From assembly GCA_039621445.1 (NCBI GenBank), contig CP154954.1, positions 41,285,572 through 41,349,571 on the forward strand: 64,000 bases of DNA, written 5' to 3'. Position 1 is the stretch's first letter. Each line of letters starts with the position of its first letter. A program made the translations under genes and the position numbers. The notes under the pieces were generated by a model that had not been told where the DNA came from, made no database searches, and saw only the letters and a list, made by a program, of their open reading frames with translations. The stretch comes from Euglena gracilis (lineage: Eukaryota). Shown piece by piece: positions 1,289 to 63,758 of this stretch.

Positions 1289-1768
1289 CAGGGTTGTATG
1301 GGAATCTCGGAGGAGGTGGGGGGGGACCCCCTTTCAAAACTAGGGGGGAGGGGGTGGGGGGACCCCCCTCCTACCCCCAGTTATCGGTCGCCGAAAATTT
1401 CGGCCGTTTTTTGGGTGAAAAAATTTTTGTGAAACTTCTCAAAAATGGTGGGGAATCAAAAGAAATGTCTGGAGCCCTGAATATGCCCTATCTAACAGTA
1501 TTTTGGTTTCCCCAGAACTCCCCACCTGGCCCGAGTTACGACCATTTTTCGTCCAATTTTGTCCATTTTGCCCAAATTTTATATTGACCTTCAAGAGAGT
1601 ACACCCGGTGCGCAGCGCCAGAGGATTTTTTATTGCCCCCGCAGAGGAGGGGGAGGGGGGTGGGGAGGACCCACACCCCACCACCTTATCCACCTAGGAG
1701 GGGGGGTGGTGGGGGGACCCCGCCACTGCCACCTACCTCATGTCTGCGGAGCTTCCCAGACAACCCTG
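1289..1768. mobile_element. hAT-like MITE (CAG...CTG, 8-bp TSD)
   Basis: TIR cagggttgtatgggaatctc / gagcttcccagacaaccctg; TSD ggggacgg on both sides; second copy at 7309-7788; absent from copy C. Confidence 0.85.
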
Positions 1769-3497
1769 GGGGACGGGGTCCACGTCGGCTGAAACGACAC
1801 AATCAGTCACCCGGGGAAAGTGCGTCACCGCCCCCATGGACCCCCACCTCACCCAGCAACCCACCTCAGTGGGAACGGCAGCCTCTGACAGGTACGACCC
1901 CAGTCAACACAGCCCCGGCATACCCCGGCCATTGCTTTCTCAGTGGGAGGCCCATCATTTCTCTTGGCAGAGAGGAGCATACCTCTCGCGCTCGAGCCGC
2001 CATCCACCTCTGTCGCAGCAGCCACCGCTTCCAGCAGCCACAGCCATCGCTTCTGGCAGCCGCAGCTGTCATCTGCCCACCGATTTATTTTTGGAAGCTG
2101 CGGCATATTTGCAATCTTAGTAAGCCTTATTACACCAAAACACTGAACCTTTCCATCCCTGCGGTTGTGTGCGCTTCCGTGTCCGGGGTGGCCCGTCCAT
2201 TAAAAAGGGGGGGATTGGGGCTTACTCCGGGAGGGGGGCCGGGTTGTGCTGGGTTTGCCCTGGCCCAGTGCTGGCCGCCACCAAACATCAGCACCCCATG
2301 GGGGCATATGAGTCAGTGGGATCAGGACACACGCAATGGCCAGGCGCCTATAGTCCAGCCCGAAACCTCACGCAGGTGGTGGCAGAAGGCCTGCTGGCCA
2401 TTGCAGGTGTGCAGCCGCGGACCCGATCGGTCCAAGAAACAGGGCAGGACCACAACAGGCCCAGGGCAGAGATCGCAAGCAAGAGCACAGGAGTTCCAAG
2501 CAAAGCAGACAAAGCACAATAGGGGAGCACGTTAGACAGCCCCAGCGAGCTGCAGCACCAAAGCAAAGGTGCAGCAAGACAGCAAACAGAGGCCTAGTCG
2601 GCTTGTGCGGCCTACGGAGGAAAGAGGTCGAGGGCAGCCGAAGGATGGCAGCAAAGGCAAGTGGGGCCCAAATGGCCTAAGCACCGACCTGGCCATGAGC
2701 GACCATCACACCAGTTCTCATTCTCATTCTCTGCTGGCCTCCGACTATAAGTGCCTGGCGGGGTCATGTCATCATGTGCCTGGTGACGGCCGCACATGGG
2801 CCGGCGGGACCCCAAAAATACAACGGGCAGCAAAAAGCATGGCCCTCTGCATTTGCGTGCCATGCACAGCCGGCCACGGTTTTGCACGGTTTGCATTTTC
2901 CAAGAAATCAACGGGGGGGGACGGTGAAATTTCCCAAGATCGCCCTGTTGCTTCCGGCTGTTCAGCCCCCCAGCACAAAAAAGCCTCGGGCGTACAGTGC
3001 CTGTCCTCCACGTTCATCCGGGGGGGGGGGGGGCTGGGGATTGGGTTGCGAAACCATTCGCACCACCAAAAGCGGTGGCCAGGCAGACCACCGTGCCGGT
3101 GCTGGCCTCCTTCCCCGCCGCGCTGCCGGCCCGCCGCGCCGTCCCGGTGCTCCGGCGGCGGCGAAGTCTGGTCTGGGCCTCCAGCATCCCGGGGACGTCC
3201 TCGCCCTGCACACCAATGAGGGGGGGGGGGTGATTGGGGGGGAGGGAGGGGGGGCAGTGAGCGTCCTGGGGTGTCTCGTTCGCTGCCCGGAAAAAAACTT
3301 ACCATAAATCAACAAAGCGCTGGCTGGCTCCCCTTGAGGGGGGTTCCAAGCAGGCTTCTGCTCAGGGTCCGCAGGGGTCGTCCACTGGCAAGTATCAAAA
3401 AAAGACAGGTGGAATGATGGATGCAAAAAAACCCAGAATTTATATGTACAACGTAATGCATGTTTTTATATTGTGTATATTGTAAAAAATTTGTACA

Positions 3498-4464
3498 CAT
3501 ATGGCAGCAACCTTTTAACTGCCCCCTCCAATGGCCATGTGCTTGGCCCCCCAGGGGGAGGGGGGCAAATAAAATCTCCTGGGTCATCAAAAAATCTTTG
3601 CGGAATTGATAGAAAAGGGTTAGGGTTACGAGTTCGGCCTAACTCTCGGCCCAACTTATAAGGTGTACAATTTAGGCCTAAGGTTAAACCCCCCCATTTA
3701 AACCGATCCATCGGTTTACGACTTTTGGGTTGACGGAAATCCTGGAAGGGGTCGGTTTAGACGGGTCGGTTTAGACGGGGGGTCGGTTTCAGGGGGAGCA
3801 CACGGCTGGCCGACAGCGTGACGGAAGCGGGTTGATGTTAGCAAAGCCATTTCAATTGGCAAATGCCTACTTTGGTTGGCCAATTCCTAACTTTGAGTGA
3901 CAAATGCCTAATTCAAGATGTAAATTCTTAATTTTAGGGGCAGATGCTGAATTTTTGGGTGTAATATCCAATTTTTGGTGGCAAACTGCCGAATTCTGGG
4001 TGCAAACTTCTAATTCTACGTGGTAAATGCCTTATTATATATTTTTGGGTGCTCCAAATTTTCGGAGGAAAATGCCCAGTTTGAGGCGCAAACTCCAAAA
4101 TTTGGAAGCAAATGCCTAATTTTGGGTGTAAAATCCCAGTTCTGGGTCATCAAAAATAACGATTCAATGAGCCTGGACACTCTTTCTGTTGGCGGCTTCT
4201 ATTATGTTGTGCATGTTAGTCATCCAACTTGCCATGGGTCGGTTATTTCTTTTTTTTTGGTTGAAATTCTGCAATGGGTCGGTTTGGAAGGGTGGGTCAG
4301 TTTGGAAGGGGGGTCCGTTTAAATGGGGGGTTTAAGATTCTGCTCCAACCATAACGCAAAAAAAATTTGGAACCACCTGGAGACGTTACTTGGTCCCCCT
4401 GGGGGGGGGGGCAAATACCATGCTGCCCTTGGGGGGGGGGCAAATAAAAGCTTGCTGCCATATG
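3498..4464. mobile_element. Non-autonomous TIR element with ~105-bp imperfect TIRs in TA-rich flanks
   Basis: catatggcagcaa... at 3498 and ...ttgctgccatatg ending 4464; arms ~3498-3602 and ~4355-4464 are imperfect reverse complements; left arm recurs at 21170. Confidence 0.7.
3688..4331. mobile_element. TTAA-flanked MITE (piggyBac/Kolobok-type target site) nested in the previous element
   Basis: TTAA|acccccccatttaaacc ... gtttaaatggggggt|TTAA; degenerate internal aaatgcctaatttt subrepeats; second copy at 21371-22006. Confidence 0.75.
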
Positions 4465-4508
<44 letters not shown>

Positions 4509-5759
4509 CATACCTATACATAAAACAATTATGGCAGAACTTCAAAAAAATCTGTGCGTCGTGAGACAGTTGCTCCGAGTGTGAAAATCGAACATGCAAA
4601 AATGTAGCTGAAAATGTGGGGAAATTGCCATCGTTTTTCGATTCAATTTTAATTTCATTGGTTTAATTTGCTGAATGCCAGAAATTTGCTGAAGCTGTGG
4701 ATACAATTCATCCCCACCATACAGAAGACACAATCATTTATATATTTTTATGCATGGCAACCTAGCACCCACAGCGAAACTAAAATTGATTAAATGGAAT
4801 AAAATACCCCAAATCTCCTGAAAATAAGAAAATTTTTGTAGTTTGAAAAATGTATGATTCAGTAAGTGGCGTTGCCATGTCAGCTTCAAACACCTGAAAT
4901 GACCTGCTGAAGACCAGAAAGACACATTGGATTGAAAATGGGCATCATAAGCAATTCTGAATAACATTCCAATTCACACGAGTGGACATTAAACATGTTT
5001 CTTCATTCGTGAGAGGGGGGTTTTACAGGTTGTTGGGGGGAGCGGCTGAGAAGATTTGGGGTCTGGACTCTGGGGGAGGGGGTCGGAGACACATTAAGCA
5101 ACAGTGTGGTCCAGACTGGGGAACCAGAAACAAATATATCCCGGGGGGGGCTCGGCCGGACCCACCCCCCCTCCCCCCTCCCCCCCCCCGGGGGTCCACA
5201 ACTAAAAAAAACCCCTGGTCTGTGCTAGGGCACATTTAGCCAAGTGCCCTACCCCCCCCCCGCCTGCCCAGGCAGGCACCCCCCGAGGTGGGGTCGGCAC
5301 CCGACTAAAATACGGCCTGGTCCTCACCCCTGCCCCACTGAACCCAAATGGGGCACAACCTCAGGCGGAACATCCTGATGCGCCAGGCCAACCCCCCTCC
5401 CCAAAGCCCCTCTGGAAAAATAAAAAATAAACACGGCTCTGCCTTGCAAACTATGCCCTTCTTGGTCCACACAACACCGGTGCTCTTCATCAACGACAAA
5501 AAAAATCCAAAAACTAGCAAAAAGGAAAGATCATCGGGGGGGGGGGGGGTACAGCATTTCTGATTTGCAAAACGGGCAACCTGGCAATCCGCTGCATCAA
5601 TTTTTTCTTGACATTGGTGTCATTTTCATTCTCGTAAAGCGGAATGCGCACACTCGTTCACAGCCCAGCCCCCCTTCCCACCGATGCAGCAGCACACACC
5701 TGGCAGCGAGTGGACCGGCGGGCAGGTGGTGGTGGGGGAACAGCGCAGCCCGCCGCCGC

Positions 5760-63060: not shown

Positions 63061-63303
63061 CTCCCACCAAACAATCAATTTAACTGGAAAAAATAACAAC
63101 AGACTGTTCCAAAAAAGAACAGAAAATTCATTTTTTTTTGCGTTTCTTCCCCCCCCAAAACTCTTATTTAATGCATTTTATGCCGTTTTTGTGCATATTG
63201 CAAAATCGCATTTTGGAGATTTGTTCAACAAATTGGCAAAAAGAGGCCAAAAGAAGCACAAAACACCAGGGAAGGGTTTTTTCTGGGTTTCAGGGGTTCC
63301 CAG

Positions 63304-63531
63304 CAGGGGTTTTTTTTTAAGACCAGGGGGTGGGAGCCCCCCCCGGGGGAGATCCGGGGGACCAATCAATTTCCCCAAAGAATGACCAAAAATTGTGAAA
63401 ATGCAAAAAACAGCACCTTGTTCAAAAATTTCCGGCGCCTTCGGCGTCGAAAAGTGCATCCCACCACCCCCTGGGGGGACCCCCCCAGGGGGAGGGGGGG
63501 CTCGGCGTTCAAGACTAAAAAAAAAACCTTT
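63304..63531. mobile_element. hAT-like MITE (family of 45215-45484), degenerate right end
   Basis: cagggg(t)naagacc ... aagact(a)nccttt; TSD gttcccag / gtccccag. Confidence 0.7.
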
Positions 63532-63628
63532 GTCCCCAGACCCCCCTGCTCAAAACTAACGCTCACTTCCTGCCATGAGGGTCCTGGTTGGTCACACCTT
63601 CCCCTGGGGGAGACCGGGGGGGGGGGGG

Positions 63629-63758
63629 CAGGATTTGATAAGGATTTGATAAGGACAGGCGGGGGGGTGGTCCGGACCCCCCTGCAGGCCAGGAGGGGGG
63701 GGGGGTGGGGGGACAACCCCCAACCTAAACCATGTTCGCCCTCCTTATATCAAACCTG
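63629..63758. mobile_element. Short CAG...CTG MITE related to 58971-59397
   Basis: caggatttgataagga ... tccttatatcaaacctg, in a G-run. Confidence 0.7.

Follow-up and report, generated by a model that had tools for sequence, protein, structure and literature searches.

The stretch of DNA analysed here, called the window at its full length of 64 kb, is very repetitive, non-coding and eukaryotic-looking, and it contains twelve short elements that open with CAG and, with two exceptions, close with CTG. The elements measure 130-688 bp, have no coding capacity and by sequence form at least six groups (A, B, C, D, E and G). They are very probably non-autonomous cut-and-paste DNA transposons, that is, MITEs (miniature inverted-repeat transposable elements), of the hAT type, and represent several related families. 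Their surroundings have a G+C fraction of 0.50-0.61 over sixteen 4-kb bins (about 0.54 overall), an observed/expected CpG ratio of about 0.5-0.6 and a strong excess of homopolymer runs. Pfam searches with 229 stop-to-stop open reading frames (ORFs) of at least 85 aa outside the tandem arrays (150 + 79) returned no real domain, one AT-hook match being the sole hit, and no retroelement domain; the 10 longest ORFs of the window likewise gave no real domain, and by these searches the window holds no protein-coding gene. A search of the window against Rfam gave 0 matches, and a scan for transfer RNA (tRNA) genes gave one doubtful tRNA-like match.

Structure and insertion history of the CAG...CTG elements

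The first-pass annotation of this DNA had described about a dozen elements that start with CAGG and mostly end in CCTG, in at least five sequence families, and exact and looser scans recovered such a set: CAGG opens all twelve elements and CCTG closes ten of them, B' ending in CGTG and C4 in a decayed sequence. Terminal inverted repeats (TIRs) of 12-19 nt, which match at 11-14 of the first 14 nt and reach perfect runs of up to 18-19 nt in B and D1, are followed by G-runs and C-runs. Target-site duplications (TSDs) of 8 bp directly abut the CAG and the CTG and agree at 8/8 positions in A, B, C1, C2, C3 and B', at 7/8 in E and C4, and at 6/8 in G (Table 1). All six duplications listed earlier are present, whereas the G8 flanks of D1 and D2 carry no information on a TSD.

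Table 1. Positions and termini of the CAG...CTG elements, with one empty target site and one truncated relative.
Feature	Positions	Length	Strand	Ends, TSD and remarks
MITE A1	1289..1768	480 bp	.	ends CAGGGTTGTATGGG...CCCAGACAACCCTG; TSD GGGGACGG on both sides
MITE A2	7309..7788		.	98.96% identity to A1; TSD GGGGACGG as in A1
MITE B	9283..9729	447 bp	.	perfect 19-nt TIR CAGGGATGGATGGGAAGCC; TSD GGGAGGGG
MITE G	13037..13434	398 bp	.	TIR 14/14 CAGGCTTTTGCTTA; TSD TCTGGGGG/CCTGGGGA, 6/8
Empty target site of C1	43963..43970		.	single GTATATAT, identical flanks
MITE C1	45215..45484	270 bp	.	TSD GTATATAT
MITE E	46106..46406	301 bp	.	ends CAGGCTGTTTTTTA...TAAAATACAGCCTG; TSD TTACGGAT/TTACGGAC, 7/8
MITE C2	55969..56236	268 bp	.	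TSD TTTGGCAC; in satellite-like monomer
MITE C3	56715..57402	688 bp	.	TSD GTGTCAAC; nested TA-flanked MITE at 56729-57136
MITE B'	57411..57688	278 bp	.	B family, opposite orientation to B; mutated 3' end CGTG; GTGTCAAC on both sides
MITE D1	58971..59397	427 bp	.	18-nt TIR CAGGGTTCGATATAAGGA; flanks GGGGGGGG
MITE C4	63304..63531	228 bp	.	decayed 3' end; TSD GTTCCCAG/GTCCCCAG, 7/8
MITE D2	63629..63758	130 bp	.	D derivative with deletion; flanks GGGGGGGG
D-family 3' part	1..158		.	cut by window start; 93% identity to D1; ends CGAACCCTG at 158

An exact scan for an 8-mer followed by CAG...CTG and the same 8-mer, over a span of 40-4000 bp, yielded 11 matches, as compared with 0-4 (mean 2.35) in 20 dinucleotide-type shuffles. 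Three of the 11 have a common right end, that of D1 with its G8 flank, and one is a palindromic repeat at 14185-14249, leaving eight distinct elements (A1, A2, B, C1, C2, C3, D1 and D2), to which looser scans added E, G, B' and C4. As a control, all termini were admitted under an exact 8-bp TSD with at least three different letters, together with a TIR matching at 11/14 or more; CAG then gave five matches, corresponding to four independent insertions, and every other terminus gave at most two. The recurrent combination of TSD and TIR is specific to CAG termini, and three of the four non-CAG matches fall within a palindromic repeat at 13.9-14.3 kb. That cluster (13900-14270), built of GGCCGCGG-based palindromic repeats, mimics TIRs and TSDs with CGG and CCA "termini" and is no transposon insertion by the criteria used in these scans. 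A further candidate, at 3505-4457, was rejected when its apparent TSD proved to be an extension of the inverted repeat.

Paralogous empty sites mark B, C1 and C2 as true insertions. The empty paralogue of C1 is identical to the occupied locus at 22/22 nt on both flanks, and 82 monomers of the satellite array at 24.4-43.7 kb carry a single TTTGGCAC, the uninterrupted site of C2; four of these monomers were compared by flank and proved similar. B has two empty paralogues, at 3236-3250 and 20927-20941, which are exact only to within a few nucleotides of the G-run. The earlier statement that several elements have empty sites holds for these three; for E, agreement with the paralogue at 44554 covers the TSD and the left flank only, and for A no clean site was found among the paralogues within the window, a third A paralogue (19195-19320) being too diverged and interrupted by a (TA)n tract to serve as one. 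A1 and A2 represent a single insertion event, copied by the segmental duplication of 159-3027 as 6182-9046 (2.9 kb, 98% identity; a third copy at 20101-21999 has 92%). The target of C2 is a stray satellite monomer at about 55845-56295.

C3 and B' lie back to back. The sequence GTGTCAAC occurs three times in 56707-57696 and brackets first C3 and then B', the middle copy being common to both; thus, two different elements hit an identical 8-bp target, which speaks for target choice. A GTnnnnAC flavour is known for hAT targets, and the double use of GTGTCAAC fits it. It is hardly credible that the pattern as a whole arose by chance, or as an artefact of duplication or assembly in repetitive DNA rich in G-runs: the G8 "TSDs" of D1 and D2, the common origin of A1 and A2, and the abundance of tandem arrays in the window would suit such an origin, but the excess of exact matches over shuffled sequence, the specificity for CAG, the perfect empty site of C1 and the many sites of C2 do not, and the contigs of an independent DNA run, which span the region, show few differences from it. 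Such an origin is refuted for B, C1, C2 and C3 and is possible only for D1 and D2.

Probable assignment to the hAT superfamily

Elements of the hAT superfamily have 8-bp TSDs and TIRs of 10-25 bp (PMC3942097), and the target pattern of Hermes is nTnnnnAn (PMC10368747). Five of ten independent targets in the window (GTATATAT, TTACGGAC, TTTGGCAC, GTGTCAAC and GTTCCCAG) show this pattern, for which the background is 0.05 (binomial p = 6.7e-5). Together with the 8-bp TSDs and the CAGGG/CAGGC termini, this supports the hAT-like character that the annotation had given the elements. They are real and, as transposons, ordinary, being further members of the hAT-like MITEs: as in MITEs of the Ac/Ds and Hermes/hobo types, they combine an 8-bp TSD with short CAGGG/CAGGC TIRs, show nTnnnnAn in half of their sites, lack coding capacity and reach high copy numbers. 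The terminus of B presumably resembles the maize Ac/Ds end, and we take a YARNG rule to describe such termini. The duplications indicate that each copy was inserted through a staggered 8-bp cut, plausibly made by a transposase that is encoded elsewhere and would recognize the inverted CAGG... termini. Their genome appears to be eukaryotic, large (about 1 Gb or more) and full of repeats, and the part of it that they occupy rich in satellites and free of genes.

Some observations weigh against this assignment. The other five targets (those of A, B, G, D1 and D2) are G-rich and lack nTnnnnAn, two of them being plain G8, and this share of G-rich targets sets the elements apart from the hAT MITEs just named. 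A transposase partner is likewise not seen in the window: no BED, DDE or hAT dimerisation domain was detected by Pfam among the 229 ORFs or the 10 longest. In addition, Merlin, which is reported in Euglena gracilis, also makes 8-bp TSDs (PMC8101967).

A protein search with an ORF of the A family produced no candidate within the lengths covered, "longer" lengths lying outside the search, and a metagenome scan with the TIR of the B family returned 10 loci, each matching 19-23 nt only, which is the chance level. The interiors are also unusual: usual MITEs have AT-rich cores, whereas these elements contain long G/C runs and GC hairpins.

The 8-bp duplication is shared by several superfamilies, P and Zisupton as well as Merlin, and it is improbable, though less so than an artefact, that the elements are MITEs of Merlin or of another of these rather than of hAT. 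Merlin elements have TIRs and TSDs of 8-9 bp, and two Merlin families with 8-bp TSDs are described from the draft genome of the euglenid E. gracilis, but the TIRs of Merlin terminate in a conserved 5'-GG-3' and Merlin encodes a DDE_Tnp_IS1595 transposase (PMC8101967), whereas in the window CAG and CTG stand directly next to the TSD and the elements encode nothing. The nTnnnnAn target pattern, present in half of the targets here, is moreover a trait of hAT.

Copy number was estimated from reads mapped to 50001-57769 (7.8 kb), a segment picked to avoid the long tandem arrays. C2, C3 and B' fall inside it, and the other nine copies outside. Three RNA runs and a DNA contig set, all from one organism, supplied the data. 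DNA depth is about 30-57 on unique DNA and rises to 1.5e4 on C2, 1e5 on B', 4e5 on the 3' half of C3 and about 1e6 on the TA-flanked MITE nested in C3, which by depth ratio corresponds to roughly 3e2 to 2e4 copies for the families of this segment.

The nested MITE belongs to a separate family with TIRs CCCCCCCCCTAGTCGTATGACC..., of which the window holds one other copy, at 55431-55843. Its TA flanks would make this family Stowaway/Tc1-mariner-like, and its DNA depth of about 0.7-1.2e6, against about 45 on unique DNA, suggests on the order of 2e4 copies. A hairpin motif, GGCGCTT(C/T)(G/A)CGCC, is present at 13271, 55625, 57029 and 59209 (4 matches, 0.02 expected); it forms an inner module common to G, the two TA-type copies and D1, despite their different classes of termini.

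Correspondence with euglenid nonconventional introns

The annotation had pointed out that the geometry of the elements matches that of euglenid nonconventional introns, and the intron geometry on which it relied is in print. Nonconventional introns carry CAG at positions +4 to +6 and CTG at -8 to -6; they terminate in inverted repeats, show "TSD-like" repeats and have one and the same pyrimidine-purine junction at either end (PMC11282704). Knock-in experiments showed that what matters for splicing is CAG, CTG and their spacers, of 3 nt at the donor and 5(-6) nt at the acceptor, and fully synthetic 50-bp introns that follow these CAG/CTG and spacer rules are spliced (PMC12501133). Nonconventional introns make up 71.8% of the introns of E. 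agilis, and flanking direct repeats render 84.4% of all its introns "slidable"; both the origin of nonconventional introns and the reason for their 3/5 cut geometry still counted as unclear in 2025 (PMC12501133).

The arithmetic put forward in the annotation agrees with these published spacers: 3 nt and 5 nt add up to 8, the length of the TSD, so each cut would separate TSD position 5 from position 6, and identical cuts in the two TSD copies would yield the same junction dinucleotide at both ends of the intron. The ends of the elements carry every cis feature of the published code, namely the CAG/CTG pair, pairing arms behind it and free spacers (any 3 nt before CAG, any 5 nt after CTG); the CAG/CTG spacing follows by construction once the cuts are placed in the TSD. 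The predicted fold of C1 RNA has an energy of -179 kcal/mol (z = -5.3), its terminal stem running from CAG to CTG, and the TIRs of the remaining elements predict the same pairing of the ends. A purine at TSD position 6, which would be the first base of the downstream exon, was counted by eye in 6 of the 10 TSDs on the + strand and in 3 of the 10 on the - strand, and is a preference only. If the host is a euglenid, an exonic copy would be predicted to be cut out, on either side, right after TSD position 5, and the loss of the element together with one TSD copy would restore the original messenger RNA (mRNA).

We posit, tentatively, that the host is a euglenid in which these MITEs, or relatives of theirs elsewhere in the genome, are progenitors of the nonconventional introns, the 3/5 spacer rule being a fossil of the 8-bp hAT TSD; we regard this as a real possibility, though one on which we would not yet settle. 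It extends the explanation of the elements as hAT MITEs, and the two are compatible. The spacers that sum to 8, the inverted-repeat ends, TSD-like repeats and shared pyrimidine-purine junction of the published introns (PMC11282704) and the slidability of 84.4% of E. agilis introns (PMC12501133) all argue for it, tempered by an acceptor spacer that tolerates 5-6 nt (PMC12501133), so that the sum is not strictly 8, and by a chance of coincidence that we put at roughly 1 in 10 a priori. A euglenid host would agree with the G+C content of about 54%, the arrays of the TTAGGG type, the repeat families of about 1e4 copies, the lack of retroelement domains among the searched ORFs and the G- and C-rich inverted runs of the MITE ends. 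None of these traits is diagnostic, the first three being common to other lineages too; on balance, we hold a euglenid host to be somewhat likelier than not. Repeats of more than 10,000 copies occur in E. gracilis (PMC6366073).

Compared with the euglenid nonconventional introns (Milanowski et al. 2014, 2016; PMC12501133), the elements are alike in having CAG/CTG at the base of a terminal stem, flanking direct repeats and a variable length, and the published spacers add up to the TSD of the window. They differ in that the copies lie in non-coding DNA, are untranscribed where reads were mapped and show no splicing. The G- and C-rich inverted runs at the ends of the MITEs also resemble noncanonical introns of hemistasiid diplonemids (PMC12621601).

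The RNA data bear on the intron prediction and lend it no support. Among the joints listed for 50001-57769 in the three RNA runs, none removes C2, C3 or B', the best-supported being poly-G artefacts, and RNA depth over the unique DNA, including the unique flanks of the elements, is 0. No CAG...CTG copy lies in an exon within the window, and none lies in a transcribed gene, as judged from the ORFs and from RNA on this segment, in keeping with the earlier statement that no copy is demonstrably exonic. The locus at 50001-57769 is silent, and this silence is no evidence against the intron hypothesis for genic copies. With the tested stretch not transcribed, the copies of the window act as transposon insertions only and not as introns.

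RNA depth on the repeats tracks DNA copy number at a ratio of about 2-5e-5 and may reflect background or pervasive transcription. In one run, X24, a size-fractionated RNA library, the MITE families in 56735-57769 show a strand bias of up to 25-fold that flips on the inverted B', which suggests that some members of these families, wherever in the genome, give rise to real transcripts of one orientation or to stable RNAs. The bias affects several repeat families and is not specific to the CAG type. Another very high-copy repeat, at 51814-52331 (DNA depth up to 9.6e5), is RNA-covered and strand-biased in X24.

Much of this proposal has precedents, and the introner idea is less new than the annotation stated: a MITE origin of nonconventional introns, TSD-like repeats at them and, for spliceosomal introners, scarless splicing based on the TSD are all published. 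A MITE origin of nonconventional introns, which the annotation mentioned as already suggested, was proposed in 2014 (PMC3935182) and repeated in 2024-2025. Scarless splicing enabled by the TSD is known for spliceosomal introners, one Aureococcus family of which has an 8-bp TSD (PMC9860276). Introners of Micromonas, Aureococcus, Symbiodinium and others are likewise MITE-like, and their TSD allows the insertion to be spliced with mRNA length unchanged; however, they use spliceosomal GT/GC-AG sites supplied by the element or the TSD (PMC9860276), whereas a non-spliceosomal CAG/CTG hairpin code is proposed here, and introners form introns of unrelated genes in many near-identical copies, whereas the copies visible here are intergenic only. 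The step from "3 + 5" to "hAT, 8-bp TSD", or any report of hAT in Euglena, was not found in the full-text literature, supplements and subscription papers lying outside this search, and the word hAT is absent from the accessible text of PMC12501133, PMC11282704 and PMC9860276. The introner claim is thus a coherent hypothesis, one step beyond print, that rests on a numerical match.

If the hypothesis is true, every new exonic insertion would be erased from the mRNA without a scar, which would explain the buildup of about half a million introns; it would also identify which transposon superfamily gave rise to non-spliceosomal nuclear introns in their largest known set, and carry the principle of introners, scarless removal through the TSD, over to another splicing machinery. 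If the elements belong to a euglenid genome, the question of intron origin can be put to a direct test on published data; should the host be no euglenid, they are ordinary hAT MITEs.

Tandem arrays and tRNA-like sequences

The satellite array at 24.4-43.7 kb consists of about 90 copies of monomers of about 200 bp with a higher-order pattern, and the sole N of the window, at 25960, lies inside it (24400-43700). An interstitial CCCTAA (TTAGGG-type) array of 1.6 kb at 16743-18343 is made up of degenerate telomere-like repeats; Euglena telomeres consist of TTAGGG. Further tandem arrays have periods of 71, 29 and 50 bp. Two tRNA-like sequences lie in opposite orientation at 14300-14540: one is identified by ARAGORN as tRNA-Tyr with the odd anticodon ATA, and the other, on the minus strand, contains the T-arm-like GGTTCGAGTCCCAC. 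Both may be pseudogenes or the heads of short interspersed nuclear elements (SINEs).

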